Shown here piece after piece: positions 1 through 41,238 of a stretch of DNA of 64,000 nt. Each line of letters begins with the position of its first letter. Within the stretch, counting starts at the first letter, position 1. The notes under the pieces were generated by a model. It saw only the letters and a program-made list of their open reading frames with translations. It searched no databases and was not told the origin of the DNA. The stretch comes from a virus, in IMG/VR virus record IMGVR_UViG_3300033802_000463, positions 32,001-96,000 of that record. One strand, written 5' to 3'. Position numbers and translations under genes: made by a program.

Positions 1-3000
1 TTGAAAGGAATCTTGTCCGGAATGACGGCTTGCGCTGTGAAAAGGGCTGCTGTTGCGCCAACCGGTTCTGTGTCAACAAATGGAGACTGGCTTCCCCAGT
101 TAAAATCGATTTTGGGATCAATCCGGGAGAACTGAACTTCTCCAAGATAATTGACTTTTGTCGGATCAAAGGTTCCCGTAACCACATACGATTGCACATG
201 AATCCAGTCTTTCGGATTCAAGATGCTGCGATCGATCACAATCGTTTTTCCACTGACACTGTACTTGCTAGGCGCAAGCTTTACGCCATTCAAAAATACC
301 GCTAAACCCTCTCCTGGATCTTGCTCCAGAACAAATACATTGTCAAGGCTGCCGGTTGCGTAACGAACCTTGATATCTCCCGGTGTGATATAGGTGCCAT
401 GAAGCTCGAACTCTTGCCCTTCGATCGTATAACCATTGGTTGAGCTTTCTGGAATCGCAACGCCATTTCGCGTCACCGACAGTACCGTGAACGGCTGCGG
501 ATCAGAGAACGGGAATTTGCTTTGCATCGGCAGCGCATCAATCTTGAAGCCGCCAGCCGTAAAAGTGATGTCTACCACATCCTCTTTATAGAGAGGAGTC
601 CCTATCGTGATCCGTTTTCCATCAACACTGAAATTCGTCGTCGAGATTCCGTTGACTTTGATTTGAACATTCCATGGATCCGGCGCATATTTCAGCTCAA
701 ATACCTGTTGGGCAGCATGACCGATGTTAGTTGTCACAGCATAATCGACTTCTTTGATGCCTTGATTGTATACCTCGATGATCCATGTTCCCTCGATCGG
801 CCGGATGAACGTCATGAGCTCAAACGGAGATGCCCCGCCATTGTATTCATACTGGGCAGCTGATGTAATAAGATTCCCGTTTGCAAAGGTTGTCTTCGTG
901 ATAGGCTCTTCTGACCAGGTTCCGTTATTCTCACTAATCCCGAATGATTCACCGTTTGGCGCTCGAACAATCATGTCCGGGAATGTATCGCCGGTGTTTT
1001 GCATAAAGGAAACCAGGACCTTGAAAGTTTCCTGCCCTGCGGGCACATAGACCGAATGCACAACGCCGCTTTCGGTTGTCGGCATTTTTCCGCGCACGGG
1101 CGCCTGGCCGGCCAGAAGCGTTTCCCGTCCCGGGTTGCCGTCTTGCCGGTATTCCGAAACTTCCTCCTGAACCGTAAAGACCTGCTCCTTCACATGATAA
1201 TCGCCGCCAACAACAAAGGCTTCTTTGATGATTTTCGTTTGCAGCGGGTAGCGGTAATAGGTTCCCAGCAGGCCATTTGTATCCCCCTCTTGTTTGTCAA
1301 CCCAGACAGATACAAAGGGGTTGGAGCTGATTACTTCAACCTTCTCAATAAACACGTTGTCATCATAATTCGGATCCATCATTGGATTGATGGATACTGT
1401 ATCGGTGATTGTACTGACCGACTCGTTATCCGCATAAAAGGTTCGCGGATCTTCCACCCAATCCGTATACCAATCCGTGTACCAGATGTACGCATCTTGA
1501 TAGTCTGACATGAAGCTTATGGTTTTCTTAATTGGATCGAGTTCGAATTTCACCCGCTCGTCATTGGTTTCTATAAACGGCCCCTCAATATTCGTCAGGT
1601 TCGGCGGCAAATAGACTGTATTAGTTGGCACGTTCACCATATTGGCTTTTCCCGCTCCTGGACTGAAGAACGGACGTTTGCCATTCACTTTCCCATACCC
1701 GATATATTTGCCGCTTATCCAAGGTTCATAGCGCGGATCCGGATCACACACGATAACCACGCGATCGTTTTGCTGATCCGTAAACAGAAGCGGTTCGTTT
1801 GTGATCTTGTTCATCGGCGCCGTCGTATTGCGCGTGGTCTGGCCAGGTTTCGACTCCCAATACATCCAGACAAAGCTGAGCTTTCCTATCGGATACTTGT
1901 GCAGTACATAATGCATGTTTGGGTAAATGGCCGGCATCGGTTCTTTCGTATAAGGATTGATGTAATGTTCATGATTTGGCGGAATCTCCACATACACTGG
2001 TCCTTCGCTGTTGACGACCCCTTCATTTTTGATGTCCGCCGGGAAGATGCCTTGATACCATTCCGTTGTTCGAAGCATCAGCACATCTGATGGATCCTGA
2101 TGCGTTTCAACATTTCCGGATTTTTGCCACTTCCAAGCATGATAAGTTGGATCAATGATGTATTCTCCGGTTTCGTTAAAGGTAATTGTATAAGTTGCCC
2201 AATTGCCGCCTGCGAACTCTCTCAGATCACGCGCTGCCACCCATCCATCATGGGCATAAGCTGTGTACTCATAGGTCTTTTCCGTGATCACATGTTCAGG
2301 TTCCGATTCCCAAATGATAAGCTTTTTGTTATTAACAAAGGCCCATTCAGTATCACCAGAAGCAGGTTTGACGATGGTATACGTCGGCGTCAGGCTGGAT
2401 GGATTCACTTCCGGATGCTGTATCAGAAAATCGGCTCGCTCAGCACGGAAAAAGTCGTCAATATCCTCAAATACCACCAAGCCTGTTGTATTGTCAATAT
2501 TGTCTGGCGTTACCAAGACAGTGCCCTTTTTCGTATAAGTATGCCTTTGGATGGTTCCGGCATTTGGACCATTGAACGTTCTTACGGTGACGGGTTGTCC
2601 GATTCCTGCTGTTGCAACGCCCGCTGTCGGATCTTTAACTTCCGCCATAATTTTGCCGATCGTATAAGGCTTTCCCGATATGCCGAGCTGACTCATGCGC
2701 GCCTGAAGGTTGTATTTGATATATTCCTCCGAGCTTGGGTTAATCACTTTTGGAGTCGGCGTTATTTCATCAAACACGGCCCACCCGTTTTGTGGCTCCC
2801 GGCCAGTAAATCGGATCCAACGTTTTACGCGAATTTGGTGAAATTCGACAGCCTGCGACCAGTTGATTGCTCCGAATGAACCTTTATCCCATTCGGTTTC
2901 GAACTCAAACACCTTGTAATAAGGAGAGGTTAAACTATGTCGAACGTAAAGTTCAGTGTGTTTACCTTTGCAGACGACTTTCATGGATTCCTTCGTCATA

Positions 3001-5807
3001 TAATCCCATCCGTTGCCGCCCTCAAGCTCATTGACCTGGACGCGATACATTTTGCCGTCCACGACTTTGTAAACGCGCCGGTGCTGTTTCTTCCACCCTG
3101 TTCCCTCTACGTATACTCTCCATAGCGATTCGGAACCCAAGTATGGGCGTGAATAAGACATATGGTTTCCATCGTCCCATACCGATTGATCTGCTGTAAA
3201 AATATCCGTGCCGTCCAAGTTATCTCCGATTCGATTGGAATATCGAACTCGCTCCTCGGCTTCCCAAAGCATCATATAGAAATTGCGCGGATCTTTTGCC
3301 TTAAAAATAATGCCGACAACATCATCATCCTGCCCGCCAAGGGTGGGCCAAGGATTCGCCTCTGGAATGGTGCGAAAATCAAATTCAACTTCGTAACTGT
3401 CCCAGGTAAAAAATTCATCGTCTTCTCCTCTGGCAATGATGCCGCTGAAACACATGCGATTGGAATCATCATAGATGAATGTTCCATCCGAACTTATCTT
3501 CCATGTATTCATTGGCGGAACGCCGACATAATAGCCATTGTTCGAGGTAAACAGATCTTTGATGTCGCCCTTATCCTCAACCTGGTAGTAAGCTTCGTAA
3601 TTCACTGCCCACTCCAGCGTTTTCTTGGGCACTGTTCCGGAGAGCTCCATATTTACTTCGTATTCTTTCGGAGTCGGAAGGATCCGATCTTCTTGAATTG
3701 TGAACGCAAACTTCTTTGGCGGATACGCATCAATGCCGATTTTGTATGGCGACTCATTGTACGTGATAAACAGATCACCTTTATACCAGATGCTGTACTG
3801 AAAGTTCAGTTCCGGATAAATGAGCACTTGATGCTTGCGCTTCCCGCGCAGCCGAGCGGCATATTGAAACGATTGAACAGATGTTTCATGCTGCGGTTTT
3901 TTAACCAGGAGATCATCATGGTCGCCGATGCCGGAATGTATCGCATGAGCCATATCAACGGATCCATGCGCCCGGCCGTAGAGGATCGTGCTGAAACCTT
4001 TCCCGTCAATATAGTTTTCCTCGAATTTCGGATCACCCCACTGCTCCTCACCGTCTTCAATCGGAAAGTACGTCTGTTCGGATGATCCGTCTATTGGAAG
4101 CGGGTCCGGCGCAGCCATCATCATAATCTGAGCTTCATTGACCTCTACAATGGCCTGCTGCGTCATCTGCCCGGCTGCAGCCGTTACACTGGCTTCCCCA
4201 TTCACAATCCCTTCAATCTTGATCCAGGTTTCGCTTTGATCTATGACACGGACAAGCCCATTGTCTTGCACGGTCCAGGTAACCGGTGCCGGATCTCCAT
4301 TTAAGATTTGCGCATAGATCGTCAGTTGCTCGCCCGGGGCTATCCGCGCGCGCTGCGGTTTGAGCGTAAGAATAGGTTGGCTTTGCCCTTGCGCCGAGAT
4401 GGTGGTAATGGATTCACTGCCATAGGCAGTTGCCCGCACTTTAATGACGCCAGGTGCATGGATCTTGACGGAAACCTCCCTGCCGTTCGTTCGACTGATG
4501 CTGGCCAGCTCCGCCCCTTCAACGATGTCCCAAGTGATGGATTCATCGTCATGCAGCATCTCTTCATACATGACTTCGTAATGTGCAGACAAGGTAATCT
4601 GATCGCCAGAAACCACTGTGATTTCTTCTGGCAAGGTATGGAATCGATACAACTTCTTTTCCCATACCGGCACTTTAACGGTTGCCGAAACTTCTTCCCG
4701 GCGACTGGATCGAACCAGCAAATCGAAAGAAAGGATCTCGTTGGCGTGCGGAGTAATCCGATAAGTCGTCTCGCTGACCTTTTCGATATCCGCCGACCCT
4801 TCTGTTAACGTAAGAGTTGTCATCTGAATCGGAAAACGTTCGCCGTTCTCATATTCAGCCGAAACATGAATTTCGGTCGGATCCCCGATAAAAGATCGCT
4901 CTTGAGACCGGGCGATGCGGATGCGGCCTTTTGGATCAACAACTTCAACTGCAATCACTTGCGAATAAGCCTCATCCACCATTATCGTCAAATTGGTTGC
5001 TCCAACTTGAACGCCCCGTAGCACTATGGAATGTTTGTCAAACGAAACAACTTCGGCAATCTTTAGCTTGTCGAATTTGTAATGCAGCGAATCCGGCCCG
5101 ATGCCGCCGGCGCCTTCGCTTTGAATGTCAATCTCAATTTTTTGCTCCATCCCGCGCACCAGCTGCAAGCGATTGGTGCTGGTAGTGATTCGAATGCTAT
5201 GGTGTTCTTCAATATCCGCGCCATAAGCATACAGTTTATCCGTGTAATTGAGCACAACACGAGGATTATTGCTGATGGCCTCAAGATGGACAATCACGTA
5301 TTCTGTCGGCAGTGGCGCCAATGCGTTGCGATCGATCAATGTTCGAATTTCGGTGTTGAACACCGGGATTTGTGTATCCTCCGAATAAACAAGATTTGTA
5401 TCAATCTGCGGCCCCATAATCCAGTCTGTTTCAACATTAATCTGATCTTGCGGCAGGTTGCTGCACCAAGCAAGTGGATTCTCCGTTCCATCCGGCAAGC
5501 AGACCACAGAAATGCGAGTATCCGGGCACCATATAAAATAAGACTCCACCGTAATATTCGGATCATCTGTTCTCAACCGGTCTAGCTCAGGCGCACACAG
5601 CAAGATGACACTTTGATCAGATAATGGCTTGGCGGAATAGATACTGTCGTTTGAGTTGTTGACGACATCGCTGGATTCATATAATTTGACATGCTGCCGC
5701 GTGCCGTCTCCGTAACGCAAATCACCATAAATTTCATAGTGGAACGATTGGGTGACAACCGGTTGAATCACCGCTTTTAGTTTATAATCGAAGTTTAAGA
5801 TTGCCAT
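1..5807 (-). CDS. Very large virion/baseplate-associated structural protein (>1930 aa, 3' end outside window)
   Basis: ATG at 5807 overlaps the end of the upstream gene and reads MAILNFDYKLKAVIQPVVTQSFHYEIYGDLRY. The ORF track lists no closed minus ORF in this frame, implying it is open to the edge. The long + strand ORFs at 30, 522, 999, 1770, 2100, 3162, 4308 and 5082 are all in the matching antisense frame. Confidence 0.8.
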   Translation of the reverse strand, partial: MAILNFDYKLKAVIQPVVTQSFHYEIYGDLRYGDGTRQHVKLYESSDVVNNSNDSIYSAKPLSDQSVILLCAPELDRLRTDDPNITVESYFIWCPDTRISVVCLPDGTENPLAWCSNLPQDQINVETDWIMGPQIDTNLVYSEDTQIPVFNTEIRTLIDRNALAPLPTEYVIVHLEAISNNPRVVLNYTDKLYAYGADIEEHHSIRITTSTNRLQLVRGMEQKIEIDIQSEGAGGIGPDSLHYKFDKLKIAEVVSFDKHSIVLRGVQVGATNLTIMVDEAYSQVIAVEVVDPKGRIRIARSQERSFIGDPTEIHVSAEYENGERFPIQMTTLTLTEGSADIEKVSETTYRITPHANEILSFDLLVRSSRREEVSATVKVPVWEKKLYRFHTLPEEITVVSGDQITLSAHYEVMYEEMLHDDESITWDIVEGAELASISRTNGREVSVKIHAPGVIKVRATAYGSESITTISAQGQSQPILTLKPQRARIAPGEQLTIYAQILNGDPAPVTWTVQDNGLVRVIDQSETWIKIEGIVNGEASVTAAAGQMTQQAIVEVNEAQIMMMAAPDPLPIDGSSEQTYFPIEDGEEQWGDPKFEENYIDGKGFSTILYGRAHGSVDMAHAIHSGIGDHDDLLVKKPQHETSVQSFQYAARLRGKRKHQVLIYPELNFQYSIWYKGDLFITYNESPYKIGIDAYPPKKFAFTIQEDRILPTPKEYEVNMELSGTVPKKTLEWAVNYEAYYQVEDKGDIKDLFTSNNGYYVGVPPMNTWKISSDGTFIYDDSNRMCFSGIIARGEDDEFFTWDSYEVEFDFRTIPEANPWPTLGGQDDDVVGIIFKAKDPRNFYMMLWEAEERVRYSNRIGDNLDGTDIFTADQSVWDDGNHMSYSRPYLGSESLWRVYVEGTGWKKQHRRVYKVVDGKMYRVQVNELEGGNGWDYMTKESMKVVCKGKHTELYVRHSLTSPYYKVFEFETEWDKGSFGAINWSQAVEFHQIRVKRWIRFTGREPQNGWAVFDEITPTPKVINPSSEEYIKYNLQARMSQLGISGKPYTIGKIMAEVKDPTAGVATAGIGQPVTVRTFNGPNAGTIQRHTYTKKGTVLVTPDNIDNTTGLVVFEDIDDFFRAERADFLIQHPEVNPSSLTPTYTIVKPASGDTEWAFVNNKKLIIWESEPEHVITEKTYEYTAYAHDGWVAARDLREFAGGNWATYTITFNETGEYIIDPTYHAWKWQKSGNVETHQDPSDVLMLRTTEWYQGIFPADIKNEGVVNSEGPVYVEIPPNHEHYINPYTKEPMPAIYPNMHYVLHKYPIGKLSFVWMYWESKPGQTTRNTTAPMNKITNEPLLFTDQQNDRVVIVCDPDPRYEPWISGKYIGYGKVNGKRPFFSPGAGKANMVNVPTNTVYLPPNLTNIEGPFIETNDERVKFELDPIKKTISFMSDYQDAYIWYTDWYTDWVEDPRTFYADNESVSTITDTVSINPMMDPNYDDNVFIEKVEVISSNPFVSVWVDKQEGDTNGLLGTYYRYPLQTKIIKEAFVVGGDYHVKEQVFTVQEEVSEYRQDGNPGRETLLAGQAPVRGKMPTTESGVVHSVYVPAGQETFKVLVSFMQNTGDTFPDMIVRAPNGESFGISENNGTWSEEPITKTTFANGNLITSAAQYEYNGGASPFELMTFIRPIEGTWIIEVYNQGIKEVDYAVTTNIGHAAQQVFELKYAPDPWNVQIKVNGISTTNFSVDGKRITIGTPLYKEDVVDITFTAGGFKIDALPMQSKFPFSDPQPFTVLSVTRNGVAIPESSTNGYTIEGQEFELHGTYITPGDIKVRYATGSLDNVFVLEQDPGEGLAVFLNGVKLAPSKYSVSGKTIVIDRSILNPKDWIHVQSYVVTGTFDPTKVNYLGEVQFSRIDPKIDFNWGSQSPFVDTEPVGATAALFTAQAVIPDKIPF

Positions 5808-7234
5808 ACTTTCGAGCCCTCCCACCGCTTCGGATTAAAGGTGTAGTTCTTCCAAGGTTCAATACTGGAATCCCAAATGTTTGGCAAGTAACCAAGACCA
5901 GTCAAGTCTTTACTGATCGTATCCCAATAACCTTCGTCCCAATTGAAACGTCCCCACATGATTGGCGCAACCGTGTTAATGTAATTCACCCATCGTTTCA
6001 AGATGTCGGTGGCCTGGCCGTCCTCATGGAACATGATGCGATACAGCTCTTCGTCCGTTTTTTGATACAGCTCATATTTCTCCACGTCTTTGATAAACGA
6101 TACGGTTCGCGGCCGCCCCGAATATTGAGCTTGGATAATAACGTAACCGAACTCATCGACGGCGTAATCGGCCGGCTGCAGCGGGACACCATCCACGCGA
6201 ATGGTATGCGGATCAATGCCGCGGCCCTTCAGGTATAAATTCTTGCTGTCATCCTTCCAGGTGACACGGCGTATCAAATTCAACTCCCGGGCGATCCCGT
6301 AGGTGAGACCTTGTTCTCCGCTGTTGGCTGGATAGCGAAATACGTCTTTGATTCGCTCCCGGTAATCCGCATTTCGCTCTCGATGAAGTCTCGGCGTGTT
6401 TGTAAGGAGACCGAACTCATCAAAAGCATTCCAGATATGATGCGGCAAACCGGATGCCGTGAAGCTTTTTCTTCGGTCAATATTCTTGATTTCTCCGCGA
6501 AAGTTTGTATATTCTTTCCGCGCATACATGCGGTTTCTTTCGTAATCGATAATGCCACCGCCATCCAGCTTATTGAAGAAAAACTCCTTTAAGCTCTTGA
6601 TGATAGGAATAGGTTCATCTCCGTCATAGAAAACCACTTCATCTGAAGGTTGAATATCCGGAAGATCATAGACCCATATCCAATCGAGCATATGCGGATC
6701 TAACAGGTCAATAAATTTTTGCCGCTTGATTTCGTCAAATTCATCCGTAATGGTTTCAAGTTCCATAGCAAACCAGTTGAAAAATCGCTGGCCATTCGAT
6801 TCCCGAGAATTGCGTATCCAGGTCCATAATGGATACTCATCCGCGATGCGCTGCGTGATGCTGGAATACCAATAATCATTCAAAAAGACTCCGTAAATTC
6901 CGCCGCCCGTTGCCTTTGCCGCCAACGTCTTTTGCTCGGCATCCAGTTTGGTTTCAAGCACTCTCCACATGCTGATGTTGTCATAATGTGCAATGCGGCA
7001 GTGCTTGGCTTCCGTTTCTGTTAATCGGGTCGCATATGGGATGGTAATGGTCAATTCATCTGCGGGATCTTCTGTATTGATCTCAAACTGCATTGGCGTG
7101 GGAATGTATTTTTCATACATGTCATCCTCGACAAAAACCTTTTGACCTTGGATTTCGGGAATGACTTTTCGCGTACAGGTGACCGGTTTTTTACTCAGGA
7201 TCACGATATCTTCATGATCCCATATGTAATCCAT
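5795..7234 (-). CDS. Putative baseplate wedge-associated protein (479 aa)
   Basis: Long ORF with GAGGGG RBS. The motif HHIWNAFDEFGLLTNTPRLHRERNADYRERI resembles baseplate wedge D..G...R...E....YR.RI motifs. Baseplate context. Confidence 0.65.
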   Translation of the reverse strand: MDYIWDHEDIVILSKKPVTCTRKVIPEIQGQKVFVEDDMYEKYIPTPMQFEINTEDPADELTITIPYATRLTETEAKHCRIAHYDNISMWRVLETKLDAEQKTLAAKATGGGIYGVFLNDYWYSSITQRIADEYPLWTWIRNSRESNGQRFFNWFAMELETITDEFDEIKRQKFIDLLDPHMLDWIWVYDLPDIQPSDEVVFYDGDEPIPIIKSLKEFFFNKLDGGGIIDYERNRMYARKEYTNFRGEIKNIDRRKSFTASGLPHHIWNAFDEFGLLTNTPRLHRERNADYRERIKDVFRYPANSGEQGLTYGIARELNLIRRVTWKDDSKNLYLKGRGIDPHTIRVDGVPLQPADYAVDEFGYVIIQAQYSGRPRTVSFIKDVEKYELYQKTDEELYRIMFHEDGQATDILKRWVNYINTVAPIMWGRFNWDEGYWDTISKDLTGLGYLPNIWDSSIEPWKNYTFNPKRWEGSKVWQS

Positions 7235-8115: not shown

Positions 8116-8562
8116 TTACACTTTTCCGATGACTCGTTTCTTTCTTTCTACATGTTCCTGTCGATTTTTCAAAAATTCGCCGGCATGCTCTTCGGCATAC
8201 TTCATATAGTCAAAGAGCCAATCTTTTTTAGGTGTTTTTCCATCCGTAATTTGATGCATATCGAGAATGCGTTGGAGCGATTGTTCAACTTCAACATCTT
8301 CTGCTGTTAGACTCATGCCGTTCAGCTTTTTATTTGCGAGTCTGATGAAGGCAAACAAAATAAACTCCAATACGGAAGCGCCAATCGTCGGATTGACTTT
8401 CTCCGAAGCAATTTCAAACAAAACCTTGCTTACCAGCTTTTGTTCTTCCGGCGGCAGTTGCGAAAAGTTTTCTTGGTTGATTACACCGGATTCAATGCTT
8501 CGGCGAATCATCACTTCTGTTTGTTCTTCTTCGGGAATCAGACGAATACGTTCTCTTGCCAT
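8116..8562 (-). CDS. Hypothetical alpha-helical protein (~148 aa), possibly fibre assembly chaperone
   Basis: ORF with GGAGG RBS 8 nt before ATG (MARER). It is last in the receptor-binding cassette. Confidence 0.6.
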   Translation of the reverse strand: MARERIRLIPEEEQTEVMIRRSIESGVINQENFSQLPPEEQKLVSKVLFEIASEKVNPTIGASVLEFILFAFIRLANKKLNGMSLTAEDVEVEQSLQRILDMHQITDGKTPKKDWLFDYMKYAEEHAGEFLKNRQEHVERKKRVIGKV

Positions 8563-8581
8563 TGTCATTTCCTCCTTTTCA

Positions 8582-9202
8582 TTAAGTCCAGGTGAGCCCA
8601 TAACTTAACAGTTTTGTATCTGGACCAAGCTCAGCTTTGATACGAATATTTCGGCCCATTGGTGAATCGGCGGTGAAGTAGAACAATTCATTAGGGTGGA
8701 TGGTTTCCCAGGTTTCCCCGTCATCACGGGATATAAAATATGCTCCATTGAATATATTTGGATTTAGTGTATTTTCCTCAACAACTAATATTGCTTTCAC
8801 TGGAACGTAATCTGAAATTTCCGGAACCGTGACAATTGTAAAATTCTCAGATCCGCTTGCTTCCACCAAACCATTTTCCGTGTCAAGTCGATATCCGCTA
8901 CTTTTCGCTGAATCAATTCCGCTGGAGTCCAAGAAATCTTCAAAGATCATGTTGTGCATTTTGTATCTTATGGTTTTGGCCACCGCATTAAGTTTTGCAT
9001 GAGCTTTCATAATGTTGATTGCATCATTTACAATAAGCTTATCTGCCTTTGCCACAACTGCCTGCAGCGCATTCTCTAAGGCGTCAATACGACCCTTGAC
9101 GTGAGGGTATGTTCCTTCAATGCCAAGTCCCAGGATGTTCTCTCTTGTGTTTTTTTCGGTTTTTCCTGCTTTATTGGCAATACCAAAACTGATTACATCC
9201 AT
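8582..9202 (-). CDS. Tail-fibre/RBP adaptor-like protein, MDVIS-family paralog 3
   Basis: N-terminus MDVISFGIANKA is shared with 13330..14400 and 18581..19276. C-terminal SRDDGETW...IRIKAEL...SYGLTW is shared with the 599-aa and 1148-aa proteins. Confidence 0.7.
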   Translation of the reverse strand: MDVISFGIANKAGKTEKNTRENILGLGIEGTYPHVKGRIDALENALQAVVAKADKLIVNDAINIMKAHAKLNAVAKTIRYKMHNMIFEDFLDSSGIDSAKSSGYRLDTENGLVEASGSENFTIVTVPEISDYVPVKAILVVEENTLNPNIFNGAYFISRDDGETWETIHPNELFYFTADSPMGRNIRIKAELGPDTKLLSYGLTWT

Positions 9203-9218
9203 GCGGATTCACCTCTTT

Positions 9219-10985
9219 TTAAATCCAGGAGTAGGACAGGCCATGAAGCTCTTGTCCATTCTTCAATACTGCTTTGATGCGCAGTGCATTACCAGAAGGT
9301 AGATCATCCAGCTTTGACAAGACATCGGGCTCTATCTTCTTCCAAGTTACACCGTCATCTCTGGATACATAATATTCGGGAGCTTCTGGTTTCAAAAGAT
9401 CATAGAGCACAGACAAGTTTGTGATGCTTGGCGTCATGGTGTAGACTTTTTCGTTTACTGTAAGCTTGTCTACAGTGACAACATCAGTTGATTTATCTTG
9501 TTCCAGATAGAAAGCAAAGCGAACTTTACCATCAGGGATGAAAGATTGCCATTCAGATTTTGTAAGAGCATTGAGCTGAGCTGGAGTAAACCCATTAGCT
9601 TTCACGGCAGTTAAGTTGGCGGGATCAACGGACACCATACCATTGCCCTTCCATGTTACTCCACTATCCCCACTGACAAGGACTTTGATATCGGTGTTGC
9701 CTTGATTCACTTCAAACATTTTCAATTCATACATATACATAGCTGAAGAACTTTTGCCCGCAGTGACATTAATTCTATATTTTTTGTATGCCTTTGAGTT
9801 ACTGAAGGTAAATTCATTTTCGTAAATGCTTCCTGTACCTGTGAAATTGTAGTTGCTTCTAGTATCAAGCACTACCCATTGTGATCCGTCCCATCCTTCA
9901 AATGTCCAACTCATTGGATATGTGGTGGAAGATGTCACGATTGCATATTTTCCTATAATCTTCTCTGTCGGAAACTCATAGGATAGCCATTGTGGATATG
10001 AAACGATAAGCCATGAATCATTCGTGACACCGTTAAAGGCCATATAAGGATAGGTGTTACTTGTTCCATGTGTATAACTCGCCTCTACTTTTCCAGATGG
10101 AGTAGTGGCACTCGTCATCACTGGGATGGCATTGTTACTTGAATATCCACCAATCGCTGTTGCATCCAATTTCACACTTTCTACTTCTCCTACTGTTAGA
10201 TCTCCTACTGGAAGAACAAGTTTAGCTTTAGGAATAGCAGTCATATTGAGGGTGCGGGAAATAGAATCCCCTTCTTCATTCGTCCAACACAATAACTCAG
10301 GTGTATCTGATGTTAATTGTTGAATAGCTGCATTATCTATCAAAGAGAGATCTGTCATACCATCTGTATCAAACATTGCTTTGGTGACGGGTGCGGTGCC
10401 GACAACTATCCACCCACCACTATTATATTCAAACATTTCAATTTCCCGAACCGCCCAGTTAGAAACGGGAGCGGAGTTAGCCAAAAGCCTCCAATATCGA
10501 CTTGCAGGCGCATCTGCAAATTCAATGGTTTCGGTTAGAAGAGTAGCGGTAACTTGTAAAGGTTTTGTATCAACATCAGCCCAAGTCACATTATCATCTG
10601 AACGCTGTATCTTTACACTAGACACCTTATAGTTGGTTTCAGTACCTGATGTTCCTAAGTGTTGTGTGATAGTAAATTTCTTGATTTTTTTGGCTGTTCC
10701 AAAATCATATCCAATCGCCGCTGCCCCATTTGCTGCGGCACCTGATTGAGCAGACACCCAAACATCAGACAAAGAATCATTAAAAGCATAAGATGCGGCA
10801 CGTGCTGTTGATAAATCTCCATTGGAGATAGCGGCTCCTCCTACACAAACATCAGAAGTAGAATACCCAGGCATAACATATTTCTTTATATCTGTTCCAT
10901 CTTGGATGAGATATTTATTTGAAATCATATTAATCCATTGTGTAACATCGGCAGTTTTATCCCATTCTACGGCTATAATGGTCAT
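9219..10985 (-). CDS. Receptor-binding/tail protein with two discoidin (F5/8 type C)-like domains
   Basis: Two repeats of A..AFND....W.......(I/L).Y(D/E)F...K.I.K(F/Y).I....(S/W)...W...D......R(Y)WR(L/I)......E.(E/K)MFE. Start at ATG 10985 (MTIIAVEW) after GAAGGTGA, with ATGA overlap on the RT stop. Confidence 0.75.
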   Translation of the reverse strand: MTIIAVEWDKTADVTQWINMISNKYLIQDGTDIKKYVMPGYSTSDVCVGGAAISNGDLSTARAASYAFNDSLSDVWVSAQSGAAANGAAAIGYDFGTAKKIKKFTITQHLGTSGTETNYKVSSVKIQRSDDNVTWADVDTKPLQVTATLLTETIEFADAPASRYWRLLANSAPVSNWAVREIEMFEYNSGGWIVVGTAPVTKAMFDTDGMTDLSLIDNAAIQQLTSDTPELLCWTNEEGDSISRTLNMTAIPKAKLVLPVGDLTVGEVESVKLDATAIGGYSSNNAIPVMTSATTPSGKVEASYTHGTSNTYPYMAFNGVTNDSWLIVSYPQWLSYEFPTEKIIGKYAIVTSSTTYPMSWTFEGWDGSQWVVLDTRSNYNFTGTGSIYENEFTFSNSKAYKKYRINVTAGKSSSAMYMYELKMFEVNQGNTDIKVLVSGDSGVTWKGNGMVSVDPANLTAVKANGFTPAQLNALTKSEWQSFIPDGKVRFAFYLEQDKSTDVVTVDKLTVNEKVYTMTPSITNLSVLYDLLKPEAPEYYVSRDDGVTWKKIEPDVLSKLDDLPSGNALRIKAVLKNGQELHGLSYSWI

Positions 10986-11986
10986 TTTTTCACCTTCTTT
11001 AAAAGTGGCGTAATGCATTTCTTTTCTAAATTATATCCGTTTGCCCATTTGATCCAACCACTATAACTCATTATGCTAGACAGATCATAATGATCAATAT
11101 ATGCTTTCTTTCGCAATTTCCTCATTTTCTTCTTAACCTTTTTCGCAATTGATTTTCTCAATAATGTATAATTTCCAAAACTTCGATAACCAACAAAGTC
11201 TACACCTCTTATATATGTCGGGAACACTTGCCAATTTTTCTTGAGTTGCAAATTTAATTGGTCAGATAAATAATTTTCGATTTCTTTTCGGAGTCGATGA
11301 AGAAAATTTTTATCATGATGTAGGATAACTATATCATCCATGTATCGCAAGTAATACTTGATTTTCTTTTCTTCTTTTATCCAATGATCAAAATAGGAAA
11401 GATAAAAATTTCCAAAATACTGAGAGAGATAATTTCCAATCGGTACTCCTCGATCACAACTATCAATAATTTCATCTAAAATCCAAAGTAGATTCTTATC
11501 TTTGAATTTTTTTCTTAATAATTGTTTAAGAATTTCTTTATCAATGGAAGGAAAGAATTTATTTATATCTAACTTCAAACAATATTTTGTTCCTTCTTGA
11601 TCCATCATAAACTGATGAAGTCTTTGTAATGCCTTATGTGTTCCTTTGTTTGGCAAAGCCGCATACGTATCATGAATAAAAGTTTTTAAGAAAATATCTT
11701 CAATTTGAAGCATAATTGCCCAATGAACGATACGATCAGGATAATAAGGAAGTTTGTATATTTCTCTTTCCTTCCCACTGTCCTGTATCGTAAATATGGT
11801 ATATGGTGAAGTTTTGTATGTTTTATTGGTCAACATAGTTTGAATATGAAAAAGATAGAAATCTGGATCTTGATCGACCATTTTGACTTCTTGATAAAAT
11901 GTTTTATTTTTGCGAGCTTTCTGGTGCGCTAATCGTAAGTTGTCGATATCTGTAATTTTATCAAAGATTCGGCCATGTCTTTTCAT
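10982..11986 (-). CDS. Reverse transcriptase, DGR class (334 aa)
   Basis: RT motifs KEREIYKLPYYPDRIVHWAI, YCLKLDINKFFPSID, GVPIGNYLSQ (SQ signature of DGR RTs), YLRYMDD, GVDFVGY. No maturase or endonuclease extension. Adjacent to the TR. Confidence 0.96.
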   Translation of the reverse strand: MKRHGRIFDKITDIDNLRLAHQKARKNKTFYQEVKMVDQDPDFYLFHIQTMLTNKTYKTSPYTIFTIQDSGKEREIYKLPYYPDRIVHWAIMLQIEDIFLKTFIHDTYAALPNKGTHKALQRLHQFMMDQEGTKYCLKLDINKFFPSIDKEILKQLLRKKFKDKNLLWILDEIIDSCDRGVPIGNYLSQYFGNFYLSYFDHWIKEEKKIKYYLRYMDDIVILHHDKNFLHRLRKEIENYLSDQLNLQLKKNWQVFPTYIRGVDFVGYRSFGNYTLLRKSIAKKVKKKMRKLRKKAYIDHYDLSSIMSYSGWIKWANGYNLEKKCITPLLKKVKK

Positions 11987-12118
11987 TTTATCAATTCCTT
12001 TTGTGTGCTCTGATATTGGATGTTCAGATTACTTACTAATCCAATGTACTGATGCAAGTTGTGTGTTCGACCAAGCGGTCAGGCAAGTGGGGTTACACCA
12101 TGAATAATTGCACACAAT
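11987..12118 (-). ncRNA. Structured TR-RT spacer (3' part of DGR template RNA)
   Basis: Inverted repeats TTGTGTGC (12001-12008)/GCACACAA (12110-12117) and ATTGGAT (12015-12021)/ATCCAAT (12039-12045). Position is equivalent to the spacer used for cDNA priming in characterised DGRs. Confidence 0.55.
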
Positions 12119-12251
12119 AGGTGGGTGCCAATATTCGAGTTCACATTAGACGCCACATTATTCAAGTGGAGATTGAACGTGCCTGCATTCGAACCATTAC
12201 TCCAATTGCCGCCAAAATTGGCGACCCGACCCGAATACAGATTCCCATTTT
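12119..12251 (-). repeat. DGR template repeat (TR)
   Basis: Non-coding 133-nt copy of 12298..12430. In the target frame it reads with 12 AAY codons. Confidence 0.95.
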
Positions 12252-12287
12252 ACTTGCCTATATTGGCAATATTAACATAAATTTATT

Positions 12288-13328
12288 CTATAGAGCAAGG
12301 CGGGCGCCAATACTCGAGCTCACACTAGACGCCACACTAAACAAGCGGAGACTGAACGCGCCCGCAAGCGAACCAAAACTCCAATCGCCGCCAAAATAGG
12401 CGACCCGACCCGAATACAGAGCCCCATAATCATATAATTTAGACGTAGCAGTTCCTGAAAAAGTCTTACCAATAAATCCTAACTGTGGTTCAGATTGAAT
12501 ATCACTAATATATCCTCCTGTGTTTGGAATAGTTACTGTAAATTTTTGATATCCAGTTCCTGCATCATTAAAGCCTTTATTTCCAATTAAGATACCAGTT
12601 GAATCAGTCACAATTCCATCAATAAAGTAAAAGATATTGCCCCAATAGTCTTCAATTCCTCGATATGACATTTGTTGTTTTCCTGTTGTTTCGCCATAAG
12701 AGTGATTACCTTTATTTAATGTTCCGCCTGTATTGATTGATGCAGTATTTCCATCAACATATCCTCTGCCAATTTTCGTTTGTGAGTCAAAATGACCATA
12801 TTCTATCAAATAAAGCAATTGCACGGCATATAAAAGATTATAATCGACAAGTCCCCATCCATTACCTCTTGCTTGTGCTTGTGATCGAAAAGTTCCAATC
12901 GTTTGTGAAACAGTTGGCGATTTATTAGGTAAAGACTCTAATTTTCCTGCGTTATTGTATCCCATGAAGGCGGAGTAATAGCGAAAATCCACTTCTTCAG
13001 CAATTCCGTCACCATCTCGGTCACGATAAAAGGCAGGGTGAACTTCATATCCTTCTGCCGGCCCGGAAGAAATATAAAATCGAAATCCCATTTTACTTCC
13101 TTCGGTAAAAGGCTCTTTTTTATACCAAAACTTTGGAATTTCCACCATGACTTGACCATTGGCTCCTGTTAAATTCGCTGTTGTCCCATCAGCCTTTTTC
13201 GTCGAATCATTTGGATCTAAATAATAATTGACTGTTCCATTGTCTAAAACCAAACAACGTTTCATTCCAGCCCAAGGCATGGTTGTATTAAAATCTACAG
13301 GTGGCGTGGTTGTGTATTGCAATGCCAT
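12288..13328 (-). CDS. DGR target protein, C-type-lectin-fold (Mtd/FGE-like) putative receptor-binding protein
   Basis: Motifs GQVMVEIPKFWYK, YRGIEDYWGNIFYFIDG and C-terminal FGGDWS.GS.AG.F.L......S.....IGARL. The VR encodes the last ~45 residues. Confidence 0.9.
   Translation of the reverse strand: MALQYTTTPPVDFNTTMPWAGMKRCLVLDNGTVNYYLDPNDSTKKADGTTANLTGANGQVMVEIPKFWYKKEPFTEGSKMGFRFYISSGPAEGYEVHPAFYRDRDGDGIAEEVDFRYYSAFMGYNNAGKLESLPNKSPTVSQTIGTFRSQAQARGNGWGLVDYNLLYAVQLLYLIEYGHFDSQTKIGRGYVDGNTASINTGGTLNKGNHSYGETTGKQQMSYRGIEDYWGNIFYFIDGIVTDSTGILIGNKGFNDAGTGYQKFTVTIPNTGGYISDIQSEPQLGFIGKTFSGTATSKLYDYGALYSGRVAYFGGDWSFGSLAGAFSLRLFSVASSVSSSIGARLAL
12298..12430 (-). repeat. DGR variable repeat (VR) at 3' end of target gene
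   Basis: Ungapped alignment to the TR at offset 179, with 22 mismatches counted by hand, all at TR adenines (minus strand). Confidence 0.95.
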
Positions 13329-13329
13329 T

Positions 13330-14400
13330 TTAAACTACCTCCAGTTTCTCAATCGATTTGAATTGATTTTTATTAATGACTGTTCGAAGCAATGTTCCTG
13401 TTTCGACCCATGCGGGATCTACATTGAATGACTGTGTGTAATTTGTTTTCAATTTCAGTGATCCATTAAATATAACCTGTTCATCGGATTGGAAAAGATT
13501 CTTCTCGTTTGAATCAAAATCATACATCGTTTTTGGATTGATCATTCCATCGGCTTGCAATTCGATTTTTATTTTCAAAAATCTTCCATGAGGAGAACTA
13601 ATCGTACCGTCTGAATTAACTGGACTGAATGGTAAAAATGACTGATTATCCATAGAAGTTGATACATAGACAGTCGCTTTAGTAGGATCTGAAGATGTGT
13701 AAATGATTTTATAAATCGATTTGTAATTGTCCCCTAAATCAATGACAGGAGATTCCCATGTCCCTGTTGAGTAATAAATGCCGGGTTCTTTTTCTGCAAT
13801 CTTGATTGTATAACTATCGCTGGATATCACAATCCATTGTGTTGTATCTGCTGATTGTTCCCATTCCATTCCGATGCTTCCTGGATTTTTTATTGCAATC
13901 GTTTGTTGATGATTTCCTTGTTGTAAATTAATAATTTTGTCATCCTGCGTTTTTGCATTACTTGCTTGAGATACAACAATCATTGTAGGATCTGAAGAAG
14001 TGGTTTCTGCTGTGGTTACGACCTCGGCTTGTGTTTGACCTGGATCGATTTTGACTTTCTTTCCCGCAGCGTCAAACAAGAAACCAGTGGACTTGGCTTT
14101 ATCGATCCCTGTGTCATCTCCGAAGTCATCGAAGGCCAAATCGGTCATGCCGTATCGGTTCTTATTAACCACGGCATTCATGCGAAGATTGTGTTTATTT
14201 ATATTAGCTGCTGTGTTTGCTTCCACATCCGACACACGATTGTAAAGTGTCACATGCGGATCTTTTTTCTCCAATTCTTCCAGCCTTGTTTTTACATTGG
14301 GATATATATCTTGAACGCCATCACCAAGACGTGTATTAACTTTTTGCACTGCTCTCTTGGCATGGTTTGCTTTCCCCAAAGAGATGATATCCATACACAT
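13330..14400 (-). CDS. Tail-fibre/RBP adaptor-like protein, MDVIS-family paralog 2
   Basis: MDIISLGKAN N-terminus (alternative start 14394). GTWESPVIDLG and C-terminal GTLLRTVINKNQFKSI are shared with 18581..19276. Confidence 0.7.
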   Translation of the reverse strand: MCMDIISLGKANHAKRAVQKVNTRLGDGVQDIYPNVKTRLEELEKKDPHVTLYNRVSDVEANTAANINKHNLRMNAVVNKNRYGMTDLAFDDFGDDTGIDKAKSTGFLFDAAGKKVKIDPGQTQAEVVTTAETTSSDPTMIVVSQASNAKTQDDKIINLQQGNHQQTIAIKNPGSIGMEWEQSADTTQWIVISSDSYTIKIAEKEPGIYYSTGTWESPVIDLGDNYKSIYKIIYTSSDPTKATVYVSTSMDNQSFLPFSPVNSDGTISSPHGRFLKIKIELQADGMINPKTMYDFDSNEKNLFQSDEQVIFNGSLKLKTNYTQSFNVDPAWVETGTLLRTVINKNQFKSIEKLEVV

Positions 14401-14427: not shown

Positions 14428-17400
14428 TTAAGCCCATGCGTATGACAATGCAGTCAGAGTTGATTGGTCATCAGGCAGTGTAACCCTTATCTTGAGCTCA
14501 TTCCCTTGTTGATTTGTAATGTCTTTCAACTCCTCAATATTGATATTATACCATGTAATTCCCCCGTCCAGTGAGTATTCGAATTTACATCCATGATGAT
14601 CTGCATTTACTATCAGCACGCTTCGATTGTCTGGAAGAGATTCCATATCAGTTTCAATGATTCCTGGGCCCTGATAGTCTTTGGTCGATGGCCGATACAA
14701 GCTTCCTTCAACTCTAATCATGCTATCGTCTTCAAAAGTATCAACGACCATATCATGCAATTTATATTTTTCCGAATTGAGCAATGCATTGCTCTTGAAG
14801 TTGAGCTTTGCGATATTGATGGCGTTGATGCGTTCCAGATCCTGAAGCCGCCCTTCGAGCGTAATCGCTTCGTAAGTGATGGTGATCGATTCTAGCGATG
14901 GAGTGCTGGTTGCTGCGCCTTTCGGCGTGTACCCAATAAGACTCACGCTTGGAACATCGGCTAATGTGTTTTGTTCAAGATAATAGGCGAAACGAATTGT
15001 TTTGGATGACCCCAGGTAAGTGTTCCACTCTTCTTGCGTAATAGCATTCAAAACATTCGGCGTCATACCAAACGATCTAACCTTATCGAGATCATTCAGA
15101 TTCACATGAACAAACTCAGACCCCACCTTGGCCTGCCAAGTCTGTCCAGAGTCTTTGCTTACAAATGCAAGAATTTTGCTTGTACCTGGTGCTGTAGCTG
15201 TCAGTGTAAAGTCATTAATACCCTGACCAGGAATATCAATATCTCCAATTGGCATAATCACCTGATCATTTGGTATGGCTTCCAATGCAATCATGTCACT
15301 CGTGCTTTCCTGGTCGTCAGTCCACATCAAAATCTTTGGATGATTGGAAGACAGAAGCTGAATTGCAGTCTCATCAATGCTTAAGAGACGGCTCATTCCT
15401 TTTAGATTAAACATTTCTTCTGTTGCTGGTGCATCTCCTACAGTCTCCCATCGATAAGCAAATGAGACATCACTGCTCCATTGCACATTCGTTAATGTGC
15501 CTGTTGCTTGGGTGATTTTCTCCGTGGTGGTGCTTCCAGTTGCTTCATCAAATGTCCAGTAATGAACGATCCCGTTTTCATCGCCTTTCAAATAGATATT
15601 TCTGTAATAGGTGATCTCCTCTTTCGTTAACGCTCTACTCCAGATTGAAATATCGTCAATATTGCCATTGAATTTGTACTGGTCAGATATGAGATGAGCT
15701 CCAATAATGGTATTGCCTCGAACCAGACTTGGACTCATGATGGTCGAATTTCCGGAAGGTAAACCATCTACGAAAACCTGAATCATTCCACCATTATGAA
15801 CAACCGCAACCTGATGCCACTTACCATCATTCACGGCGATTGTTGAGTTTGTTCCACCCACGGCGTACAAATCAAATCTTACGAAGCCTTCGGGAGTCAG
15901 ATAGAAGAATAAGCTTTGATTTTTCTGTTCGGCCCCGAAATCAATAATCTCTTGCCGCTTGCCACTGGAGCTGGTCTTGATCATGGCAATGATGGTAAAA
16001 TCACCAGAACCAGTTATTGGAGAGGTTGAGCAGAGCACCTGTCCATTTCCATTGAATTTAAGAGAGCTGCCTGGCAAGAGAGAATACCTCTTAATCTTTC
16101 CATTATCCTCAACAAGAAACTTACGAATGGGTGTTTTTTCAATGATAAGAATCGGCCGGAACCCGGTCAATGCGCCACTATAGCTGCTCGCAGTTGAAGA
16201 CCATTTAGCAAGACTGGGCTGATCTGATCTGTTATTGTAACCACGAACAACTCTTGTATCAGTGGATGTATCTGTCGATGTTGGTGAAGTGGATGTGATG
16301 GAATAAAGGTTGTTTTGATTCCACACATACACGTCACCTGGAATAATCGAACCTTCAAGATCAGAGCCTTCAACATACCTATCCCACTCATTATCTTTGT
16401 CAGCGTTATTGATGCCGCCAGTCGGAAGACGAAGATACAAATTCGAATTACTGTCATCGACAAACAAGTGATTAGCCAACAATCCGCTCCCGCTTGCTAC
16501 GCCTGCAGTGTTTAATGCATCATAACTAATGGTGTGTTGCAGGTTTCGATCTGCCAGAAGCTTTAATCGTCCATTTTCTCTGTCAAAATCAACGCAGATA
16601 AAATAGAAATCACCGTCTGGAGCAACTGATGATGTTGCTGGAATAAAGTCTTTGTTTTCTTGCCCGAGCCCATAAAATGATCCGAGAGCTCCTGGTGAAA
16701 CGACTTTGTATCCACACCGAATACGCTTGCCAACTGTCAATCCGTTAACAGAAAGAACTTCATCCAGATGCAAAAGACGGCCGTTTTCATCAATATCAAT
16801 GGCGTCCACGATCATTTGTGACACCGTGTTTGCAGTTATTTTGACAAGATGTTCCCCATCTGGCAGGTCATTCTTTTCATAAAGGACAGTTTGGTATCTA
16901 CCGATCGCATCATAGCCACGAATACTGATGATTTCTTCAATCCCGTCGATTTCTACTTTCACACTGTCAGAAGTAGCAGAACTCATATATCCAATCCATC
17001 TTAACTTGGTTCCTTTAAAGCGAAAAGTAAAGAACATGTTTTCTTTCGATGCATTGGTTTGGCCATATGCGGCTGTGCCGTGATAGGTTTTGTTGTACAT
17101 TTTTTCACTTTGAGTTGCGGATCCTACAAACCAATTACCGCCCCCGTAAGTGATGGCTGAATGCGAGTCATCATATCTTTTCCACCCATCTTCTACCCTA
17201 TCAAGGTATTCTCCAACCGTTATCTCATCTGAAGTTCCTTGCCAAATCTCAATATCATCAAGATCGCCAGTGAAAAATTGCTGATATGTGTTGGCATTTT
17301 GCGCGTGCATGCATCCGAGGACAAAGTTGCGCCCGTAATACGTAGGGTACGTATTCGGCGTATACATGGCACTATACGTGTGAGTGTTGTCTATGGCGAT

Positions 17401-17874
17401 AGAGATGATCCCATGCTCATTGTCATTGACAATTTTAATGTCGTGCCATTTATTATCACAAACATTTACGCCCTCAGTTATTATCGCATTGTACAAATTG
17501 GTCTTATCCTCGCCGACAACACGAAGGACCAGTGAACCTGGGCTTGGCCTATCATAGCCATGAATATAAAGACAGATGCCAGGCTCGATAGCCGTTTGAA
17601 CTGTTGTTCCTGTTGCAAAGATGACCTCAATAGCATTTGGGATGGCGGCCACTCTTAATTTCATCTTTAGAACAAACGATCCTCTAGGAATAATGGGATT
17701 CGAAAAAACGATCCTACTTGATGATGATGCAGTAAATCTCCTTGCATTCCCGAAACCTGCAGGGCCTGCAATGATTGTTGTGTTGGTGGCTGTGCCATTA
17801 TATTTCCCAAGTGCATCAACAACAGTCGTACCACTAGATTCGTCGAGTCTCCAAATCGCAACCTGTTTATTCAT
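14428..17874 (-). CDS. Large receptor-binding/tail protein with two LamG (concanavalin-like) domains and a lectin-like module (1148 aa)
   Basis: LamG motifs WRLDESSGTT...DNKWHDI...FTGDLDDIEIW and NDGKWHQVAVV...FNGNIDDISIWSRALT. Internal ADRNLQHTISYDALN...NEWDRY...GFRP module. C-terminal half paralogous to the 599-aa protein. Confidence 0.8.
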   Translation of the reverse strand: MNKQVAIWRLDESSGTTVVDALGKYNGTATNTTIIAGPAGFGNARRFTASSSSRIVFSNPIIPRGSFVLKMKLRVAAIPNAIEVIFATGTTVQTAIEPGICLYIHGYDRPSPGSLVLRVVGEDKTNLYNAIITEGVNVCDNKWHDIKIVNDNEHGIISIAIDNTHTYSAMYTPNTYPTYYGRNFVLGCMHAQNANTYQQFFTGDLDDIEIWQGTSDEITVGEYLDRVEDGWKRYDDSHSAITYGGGNWFVGSATQSEKMYNKTYHGTAAYGQTNASKENMFFTFRFKGTKLRWIGYMSSATSDSVKVEIDGIEEIISIRGYDAIGRYQTVLYEKNDLPDGEHLVKITANTVSQMIVDAIDIDENGRLLHLDEVLSVNGLTVGKRIRCGYKVVSPGALGSFYGLGQENKDFIPATSSVAPDGDFYFICVDFDRENGRLKLLADRNLQHTISYDALNTAGVASGSGLLANHLFVDDSNSNLYLRLPTGGINNADKDNEWDRYVEGSDLEGSIIPGDVYVWNQNNLYSITSTSPTSTDTSTDTRVVRGYNNRSDQPSLAKWSSTASSYSGALTGFRPILIIEKTPIRKFLVEDNGKIKRYSLLPGSSLKFNGNGQVLCSTSPITGSGDFTIIAMIKTSSSGKRQEIIDFGAEQKNQSLFFYLTPEGFVRFDLYAVGGTNSTIAVNDGKWHQVAVVHNGGMIQVFVDGLPSGNSTIMSPSLVRGNTIIGAHLISDQYKFNGNIDDISIWSRALTKEEITYYRNIYLKGDENGIVHYWTFDEATGSTTTEKITQATGTLTNVQWSSDVSFAYRWETVGDAPATEEMFNLKGMSRLLSIDETAIQLLSSNHPKILMWTDDQESTSDMIALEAIPNDQVIMPIGDIDIPGQGINDFTLTATAPGTSKILAFVSKDSGQTWQAKVGSEFVHVNLNDLDKVRSFGMTPNVLNAITQEEWNTYLGSSKTIRFAYYLEQNTLADVPSVSLIGYTPKGAATSTPSLESITITYEAITLEGRLQDLERINAINIAKLNFKSNALLNSEKYKLHDMVVDTFEDDSMIRVEGSLYRPSTKDYQGPGIIETDMESLPDNRSVLIVNADHHGCKFEYSLDGGITWYNINIEELKDITNQQGNELKIRVTLPDDQSTLTALSYAWA

Positions 17875-35298: not shown

Positions 35299-35313
35299 GT
35301 TTTGCACCTCCAC

Positions 35314-41214: not shown

Positions 41215-41238
41215 AACATTCACCTGCTTTTCTTTGCA

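Follow-up and report, generated by a model that had tools for sequence, protein, structure and literature searches.

Does a pair of short repeats beside a reverse transcriptase gene in a phage genome represent an intact diversity-generating retroelement (DGR), which protein does it vary, and is it still in use? This question was raised by a stretch of viral DNA comprising 64,000 nucleotides (positions 32,001 to 96,000 of the IMG/VR record IMGVR_UViG_3300033802_000463), hereafter called the window; the whole virus record has 136,063 bp. A sequence-only reading of the window had described an intact DGR that hypermutates a tail receptor-binding protein and is recently or currently active. According to our analysis, the element is, with a probability of about 0.9, a complete accessory-free DGR composed of a target gene with its variable repeat (VR), a template repeat (TR), a spacer RNA and a reverse transcriptase (RT), without Avd, which lies in the tail gene cluster of a ~136-kb phage of soil or plant surfaces related to Psychrobacillus phage Perkons. 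Every part that defines such an element was present, namely the RT, a non-coding TR, a VR within the last 45 codons and a target with a lectin fold, and in this respect the sequence-only reading was confirmed.

The repeat pair, the reverse transcriptase and related loci

All parts of the cassette reside on the minus strand in the order target gene (13328..12288), VR (12430..12298), TR (12251..12119), spacer and RT gene (11986..10982). VR and TR are separated by 46 nt, TR and the RT gene by 132 nt, and no open reading frame (ORF) was detected between VR, TR and RT. Each repeat has a length of 133 nt. The TR is non-coding, as the frame running through it is open for 56 aa only, and contains 34 adenines, 24 of which belong to 12 AAY codons. 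The VR comprises codons 300-344 of the target gene and ends 8 nt before the stop codon. Aligned on the coding strand, the two sequences matched without gaps over 133 nt and exhibited 22 mismatches, all of which were located at TR adenines (12 A>G, eight A>T and two A>C), while none of the 99 non-adenine positions differed. The chance that 22 mismatches are all found on 34 out of 133 positions is 7.3e-17 (hypergeometric). Our recount was identical to the ungapped alignment and the mismatch numbers reported before, and the adenines, previously given as about 34, amounted to precisely this number, with 12 AAY codons accounting for 24 of them. These codons (11 AAT and one AAC) correspond to the target codons 301, 303, 311, 315, 318, 321, 326, 330, 331, 335, 337 and 339. 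Together with seven single-adenine codons they give a theoretical repertoire of ~2e18 protein variants (15^12 x 4^7), in which stop codons never arise. The GC content was 57% for the VR vs 47% for the TR.

An independent repeat search retrieved the same pair with slightly shorter bounds (130 nt, 85% identity; 12119-12248 and 12298-12427). The 5' boundary of the repeats is therefore uncertain by ~3 nt. Within the shorter bounds there were 20 mismatches, again all at A. Since an extension by 2 nt on either side immediately added non-A mismatches, we concluded that the TR/VR bounds are real. BLAST of the TR against the 136,063-bp record yielded only the TR itself and a single VR, and a second copy of the target was not found in this record.

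The RT gene is an intact ORF encoding a protein of 334 aa with an isoelectric point of 9.7. DGR RTs are characterized by a catalytic YxDD sequence and the motif [I/L]GxxxSQ. In the window RT, IGNYLSQ at residues 183-189 (11440..11420), YMDD at residues 215-218 (11344..11333) and the motif LKLDINKFFPSID are intact within the open 334-aa frame; for YMDD and SQ this had been claimed by the sequence-only reading. The protein matched PF00078 (E 7e-17) and phrog_1423 (E 5.6e-126). Its best solved relative was the 328-aa RT of the entry 8ub7 (E 6.4e-42), which we take to be the RT of Bordetella phage BPP-1, an assumption that agrees with the size of the protein and with the match to BPP-1 brt described below, while group II intron RTs reached E 1.7e-15 or weaker values. 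In tblastn searches against phage genomes, the RT was 64.5% identical to the RT of Perkons, 44-54% to RTs of crAss-like phages, 35-43% to those of archaeal viruses and 33.4% to BPP-1 brt over 96% of its length (E 8e-32); the matches also included Bacteroides phage p00. Judged by these similarities, the RT belongs with the DGR RTs.

With NCBIfam models the RT scored far below the cut-offs (111 vs 300, 72 vs 200 and 63 vs 235), whether for RTs of group II introns and retrons or for Drt3a and Drt2. The sub-threshold matches to the group II intron RT, Drt3a and the retron RT are what might be cited for a different origin of the locus, in which a common tandem duplication lies next to an RT of no relation to it (of a retron, a group II intron or a defence system) and the mismatches reside at adenines by chance. 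However, the protein resembles DGR RTs far more strongly, the adenine pattern has a chance value of 7e-17, and the same pattern recurred in seven related loci. A tandem duplication of this kind is refuted by the adenine count, its chance value and the recurrence in relatives, and we attribute a vanishingly small probability to it.

For comparison, 14 related loci were studied, i.e. Perkons (L003) and 13 loci from IMG/VR. A full-length RT along with TR/VR was found in Perkons, whose repeats did not show any non-adenine mismatch (0/32), and in L006 (0/22), L008 (1/29), L009 (0/26), L014 (0/22) and L016 (2/32). The locus L012 contains TR/VR and the spacer motif RT-17 (see below) together with RT residues 2-84 only; six of its 19 mismatches were non-adenine mismatches. 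In L011, RT fragments with stop codons were detected directly downstream of the target homologue, while L005, a complete phage of 116.8 kb with terminal repeats, retained ~50 C-terminal RT residues at this place. The records of L004 and L007 do not contain an RT. A TR was not found in L004, L005, L007 and L011 by an adenine-tolerant repeat scan. The contigs of L010, L013 and L015, which end at most 123 nt past the target match, were outside the comparison of TR and RT. By their sequences, L012, L011 and L005 are apparently stages of decay of the same DGR, L012 being a natural negative control for adenine specificity. As non-adenine mismatches were lacking in the window, close to zero in the loci with full-length RTs and accounted for 6/19 in L012, the window fits the elements with a working RT and not the decayed ones.

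The related loci also disclosed diversification among very similar phages. L014 and L016 possess identical TRs and flanks diverging by ~1% (upstream, 19 differences were counted over 2366 nt, and downstream 22 over 1960 nt). The VRs of the two loci differed at 17 of 40 adenine sites vs two of 94 other sites. The same pattern was observed in L006, L008 and L009. These data are direct evidence for diversification in this clade.

The target protein

The target gene (12288..13328, minus strand) is an open frame of 346 aa, whose product can be classified as a stand-alone variable protein with a C-type-lectin/formylglycine-generating enzyme (FGE) fold of the phage 'tail collar fiber' type. A Pfam or NCBIfam family was not found for the protein. 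It matched phrog_5302 ('tail protein') with an E-value of 6.1e-76 at profile positions 189-541 of 548. With an E-value limit of 0.001, 2092 homologues were retrieved from the protein database; the best of them besides the protein itself was 66% identical. Named homologues came from records of Bacillus, Clostridium, Paenibacillaceae, Exiguobacterium and Metabacillus.

An AlphaFold2 model calculated with 80 homologues (pLDDT 95.7, pTM 0.94) was compared with solved and predicted structures. Foldseek ranked TaqVP (5vf4, E 2.5e-11) first, followed by Mtd (1yu0, E 2.3e-5) and then by proteins of the formylglycine-generating-enzyme type. With VIA-align, TaqVP gave a Z score of 25.9 (root-mean-square deviation 2.9 for 257 residues, model residues 20-346, 24% identity), which was well ahead of TvpA (2y3c, Z 13.7), FGE (Z about 12) and Mtd (Z 11.6). 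The sequence profile of the 80 homologues also matched 5vf4 (E 1.7e-4), with the C-terminal VR segment aligned. The model is very confident, and its fold is of the C-type-lectin/FGE type and closest to solved DGR variable proteins. A C-type-lectin fold had been expected in the sequence-only reading, and the matches of the model to TaqVP, TvpA and Mtd agree with it. Among the predicted viral structures of BFVD, the best matches (TMq 0.75-0.90) were labelled 'tail collar fiber protein' and included fibre proteins of those crAss-like phages whose RTs resemble the window RT. The matching part constitutes the C-terminal ~340 residues of BFVD proteins of 500-1000 aa and is stand-alone in the window.

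The variability of the homologues was concentrated in the codons presumably exposed to mutagenesis. In the alignment of the 80 homologues, the mean entropy was 3.2 bits at the 12 AAY columns vs 1.75 in the other VR columns and 1.59 in residues 1-299. The AAY columns are occupied by residues that can arise when AAY codons are mutagenized.

The cassette is located within a cluster of tail-fibre and baseplate genes forming a single minus-strand block. On the same strand, neighbouring genes encode fibre-like proteins in which F5/8 type C and laminin G domains were recognized, proteins resembling baseplate wedge components and a tail-associated lysin of 2120 aa. Gene context, the phrog_5302 match and the structural matches to tail collar fibre proteins make a tail location of the target well supported, and the tail protein of the sequence-only reading was thereby corroborated by the profile, the neighbours and the fold. 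Its designation as a receptor-binding protein was upheld in part: the tail part stands, whereas receptor binding is deduced only. Since the variable residues lie in the C-terminal part of a protein with a TaqVP/TvpA/Mtd-like fold, the element most likely diversifies the binding of a ligand or receptor at the tail tip.

It is conceivable that the DGR is real and that its target is an accessory lectin-like protein of the tail or virion, or even a non-virion protein, which binds something besides the primary receptor. The protein comprises only 346 aa, was matched by phrog_5302 from position 189 onwards and does not possess the N-terminal collar or fibre part of the homologues of 500-1000 aa. At least four adjoining fibre-like proteins carry lectin-type domains (F5/8 type C, laminin G) and could be the main receptor binders. 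Furthermore, the closest solved structure, TaqVP, originates from a bacterial DGR and not from a phage tail. On the other hand, the target gene lies between tail-fibre-like genes in one minus-strand block, the viral structures most similar to it bear the label tail (collar) fibre, among them proteins of crAss-like phages that are themselves DGR targets, and the fold is shared with Mtd, the receptor-binding protein of BPP-1. We therefore regard an accessory role as unlikely and prefer a target with which the tail tip binds a ligand or receptor.

Spacer RNA, accessory gene and activity of the element

Between TR and the RT gene, a structured spacer RNA similar to the Rfam motif RT-17 (RF03020) was identified (12001..12085, minus strand; 31.8 bits, E 2.5e-4). 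The motif was present at the same place in all seven relatives with TR/VR and exceeded the gathering score in four of them, with ~60 bits for L006, L008 and L009 and 48.5 bits for L012; Perkons gave 31.4 bits, and L014 and L016 were sub-threshold. Compensatory changes were found at eight of the 13 predicted pairs in a comparison of six sequences. On its score, the window spacer is best called a divergent RT-17-like element. It presumably corresponds to the 'Sp' RNA of BPP-1, by which cDNA synthesis is positioned and primed. In PMC5737381, RT-1 to RT-19 are motifs near RT genes; RT-10 is placed in BPP-1, and RT-17 is not named in the main text. We did not find a publication that joins RT-17 with a diversity-generating retroelement, a link that, like the lineage itself, may already be contained in Supplementary File 1 of PMC5737381 or Table S1 of PMC5758913.

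The 8 nt directly 3' of the TR (12110..12117, minus strand) are a perfect complement of 12001-12008, the 3' tail of the RT-17-like motif, and constitute a candidate template:primer duplex. Pairing of the homologous positions with a different, covarying sequence was found in L003 (7 bp), L009 (9 bp) and L014 (8 bp). Case by case the complementarity is weak, as 34 to 292 of 1000 shuffles gave the same length, and the RNA fold of the 341-nt region comprising TR and spacer was no better than that of shuffled sequences (z -0.53). Pairing of the TR 3' flank with the tail of the spacer is thus a tentative proposal. On a more general level, RT-17, to date a candidate structured RNA, might act as cis-priming spacer in a DGR clade that works without Avd and is common to crAss-like phages and siphophages of Bacillota. 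Its unpaired 3' tail would pair with the 7-9 nt after the TR and in this way set the cDNA start. We put this suggestion forward tentatively, as it is somewhat more doubtful than probable.

At their 3' ends, TR and VR disclosed two more features. The homology past the last variable adenine comprised 3 nt in the window vs 9-12 nt in Perkons and L014. The two 3'-most TR adenines (12119-12127 / 12298-12306) were replaced by G in the VR of all eight elements (the window and seven relatives), which gives conserved Ala/Gly-Arg codons at positions 342 and 343. This fixed A->G exchange could be a constant difference similar to that of the initiation of mutagenic homing sites (IMH/IMH*) or could have been fixed by selection on these Ala/Gly-Arg codons. 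In the 46 nt that separate VR from TR there is a short inverted repeat (12254..12269, minus strand) with a 5-bp stem and a 6-nt loop, which also occurred in the RNA fold and did not score as a terminator. In BPP-1, a DNA hairpin lies downstream of the VR, and the inverted repeat could be a weak equivalent of it.

Attempts to identify the accessory gene avd failed. In the six frames of the 136,063-bp record there was no match to PF05635 at E <= 1, a search that a very divergent Avd could escape, and no PF05635 match was obtained in the records of five relatives including the complete Perkons genome. A helical ORF of 161 aa at 8116-8601 did not match any Pfam or PHROG family. The missing PF05635 match and the lack of an ORF between VR, TR and RT speak against an Avd-dependent DGR of the BPP-1 type (architecture B of Wu et al.). 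Parts of PMC5758913 list avd in 275 of 372 DGRs and the accessory-free architecture A (TR-RT) in 75 of 372, and describe RT lineage 3 as lacking avd. In the relevant part of PMC7290462, the crAssphage LMMB element has the order target gene (TG)-VR-TR-RT without avd and is assigned to lineage 3. Priming in the window element would be independent of Avd. The sequence-only reading mentioned neither the missing Avd nor the conserved RNA motif in the spacer, and both leave its interpretation unchanged.

The population of the phage was studied with 10 sequencing runs containing matching data, all in the form of assembled contigs, in which minority alleles are dropped; four of the runs (X1, X2, X3 and X5) were compared. 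X3 harbors a relative that is ~94% identical to this phage, with 22 of 728 letters differing in the RT and, for the target, 55 of 833. The VR is overlapped by two X3 contigs, and among the VR differences listed, all five reside at sites of TR adenines (12352, 12367, 12368, 12380 and 12386). Contigs from the RNA library X5 cover 11820-12247, i.e. TR, spacer and the start of the RT gene; this coverage is compatible with a TR-spacer transcript, and DNA carry-over is possible. Taken together, the lack of non-adenine differences at 99 positions, the adenine sites among the X3 differences listed and the diversification of near-identical relatives strongly suggest recent DGR activity in the window phage. 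The recent activity claimed by the sequence-only reading was thus supported indirectly, while the activity of the element in this genome at the present day is something that we infer.

The data also have to be weighed with regard to a DGR that was active until recently and is now silent or disabled in this phage, e.g. by the loss of a host or accessory factor, so that the VR would be a frozen allele. The single VR allele in the contigs of X1 and X2 would fit this, as would the missing Avd, the homology of 3 nt past the last variable adenine (9-12 nt in Perkons and L014) and the frequency of decay among the 14 related loci, which comprise one truncated RT (L012), two remnants (L005 and L011) and two loci without RT (L004 and L007). 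A frozen allele is opposed by the difference between 0/99 non-adenine differences in the window and 6/19 non-adenine mismatches in the decayed L012, by the intact frame and catalytic motifs of the RT and by the RNA-library contigs covering TR, spacer and RT start. Moreover, the whole clade lacks Avd, yet its near-identical members have diversified VRs. A silenced element is therefore improbable in our view, and we favor a complete, recently active DGR.

If so, its mode of action can be outlined by analogy to BPP-1. First, the TR and the structured spacer would be transcribed into one RNA. The RT would bind the RT-17-like spacer, and the duplex of TR 3' flank and spacer tail would set the start of the cDNA. 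The RT would then copy the TR, misincorporating nucleotides opposite adenines, and the cDNA would finally replace the VR, i.e. the last 45 codons of the target gene.

Several points weigh against this picture of an active, accessory-free element with a receptor-binding target. X1 and X2, which carry the exact window sequence and one of which may be the source sample, showed the window VR allele alone in their contigs. The restriction to adenines in X3 covers the differences listed, and its VR may also have non-adenine differences. The BPP-1 RT needs Avd, which was not found here, and the BPP-1 mechanism is therefore not simply transferable to the window. With 31.8 bits, the spacer does not reach the RT-17 gathering score of 40.4. 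According to RNAduplex, pairing of the TR 3' flank with the spacer was no stabler than with a shuffled spacer in six of six lineages (20 to 126 of 200 shuffles equalled it). A clear IMH/IMH* pair was not recognized, as TR/VR homology stops 3 nt past the last variable adenine. Finally, receptor binding and virion location are deduced from annotation labels, gene neighbourhood and fold, and the target is devoid of the N-terminal fibre part seen in longer homologues.

Genome setting and comparison with known systems

The DGR is surrounded by genes for fibre-like proteins on the minus strand. A protein of 206 aa (8582-9202), an F5/8-type-C protein of 599 aa (9219-11018) and a protein of 1148 aa (14428-17874) end in a similar C-terminal module with an Asp-box-like S/D-x-D-G-x-T-W segment. 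A further fibre-like protein (13330-14400) shares PHROG pieces with the other three. The pieces 31511, 38477, 15809 and 5811 are distributed over the four proteins in differing combinations, and on this basis the proteins look like a shuffled set of tail-fibre modules. The gene of the 599-aa protein begins 37 nt within the 3' end of the RT gene (10982-11986), and Perkons ORF174 overlaps the Perkons RT gene likewise. Because of the overlap in the window, the DGR is embedded in the fibre operon and is no separable island. The GC content drops to 30% in 11001-12000, the trough of the RT gene, vs 43-48% in nearby tail genes and 46% in the whole window, which suggests that the cassette may have been gained from a source with a lower GC content. 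Outside the Perkons group, the closest relatives of RT and target were found in crAss-like phages.

Elsewhere in the window, four giant minus-strand ORFs of unusual size were detected, namely at 3-5825 (at least 1941 aa), at 21946-28308 (2120 aa, matching an endolysin/tail-lysin PHROG with E 0), at 28321-35313 (2330 aa, without PHROG match) and at 35314-41223 (1969 aa). No terminator was scored, and the number of promoter-like sites (13 vs 11.0 +/- 3.6 expected) was at chance level. Thus, transcript boundaries cannot be proposed.

DGRs in phage tail genes have been known since BPP-1 and are catalogued in large surveys, so that another one adds little on its own. The window element is an unusually clean and complete example of the already known accessory-free architecture. 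The one DGR RT that has been studied biochemically depends on Avd and does not explain how such elements work. The TR-RT spacer ties the orphan Rfam motif RT-17 to DGRs and suggests a covarying template:spacer duplex. If cis-priming by RT-17 held true, it would explain how the RTs of this clade work without Avd. The family, which runs from intact through truncated to deleted DGRs, also helps to calibrate how fast the adenine specificity of TR/VR is lost after the loss of the RT.

The DGR of BPP-1 (mtd-avd-TR-brt) resembles that of the window in its adenine-specific TR-to-VR differences, in the position of the VR, which forms the 3' end of a tail gene for a protein with a C-type-lectin fold, in a homologous RT and in a structured TR-RT spacer of about 130-140 nt. 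It differs by possessing avd, which in the window is found neither between VR and TR nor elsewhere in the record. Parts of 10.1101/2023.10.23.563531 describe the BPP-1 RT as inactive without Avd and as cis-primed from the spacer RNA. In PMC5737381, the motif located in BPP-1 is RT-10, whereas the window spacer matched RT-17. An IMH/IMH* pair as in BPP-1 was not recognizable in the window, and the window target resembles TaqVP far more than Mtd. TaqVP (PDB 5VF4), the best structural match over nearly the whole target, comes from the bacterium Thermus aquaticus according to its entry title and not from a phage tail, and its identity to the target is only about 17-24%.

The accessory-free DGRs of Wu et al. 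2018 (architecture A, RT lineage 3), as portrayed in parts of that work, share with the window the order TG-VR-TR-RT and the lack of avd. By its order of parts and its missing accessory gene, the window element fits architecture A1; its RT, which is similar to the crAss-like RTs assigned to lineage 3 in PMC7290462, may belong to that lineage. At the DNA level, the RT of crAssphage LMMB was also matched, and the tail fibre proteins of the crAss-like phages cr55_1, cr7_1, cr6_1 and cr85_1 matched the target model. Crass-like phages have genomes of roughly 100 kb compared with roughly 136 kb for the Perkons-like window phage, and they differ in host range and virus type. In the pertinent part of its description, the target of crAssphage LMMB is a tail-collar fibre protein of 486 aa, whereas the window target is a stand-alone module of 346 aa.

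The closest cultured relative is Perkons (MT325768.1, 90877-93399; ORF175 reverse transcriptase, ORF176 hypothetical protein), a siphophage of a Bacillota host. Its cassette is ~70% identical to that of the window at the nucleotide level, with 63% identity for the target and the same order of parts. TR and VR of Perkons comprise 137 nt and differ at 32 positions, all of them adenines, the RT is full-length, the spacer is RT-17-like, and Avd was not found in the complete genome. The two phages differ in the sequences of VR and TR, in the 3' homology past the last variable adenine, which is longer in Perkons, and in the neighbouring fibre genes. In the main text of the 2026 Perkons paper (PMC13245101), the terms DGR, retroelement and reverse transcriptase are absent; variable plaque sizes and an adsorption assay without consistent result are reported there. 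A link between these results and heterogeneity of the tail protein is pure speculation, on which the RT-17 reading, if true, might have a bearing. As Perkons was cultured with its host and carries the same cassette as the window, it provides an experimental handle, and, provided that RT-17 acts as proposed, Avd-independent mutagenic retrohoming would become testable in a Gram-positive laboratory system.

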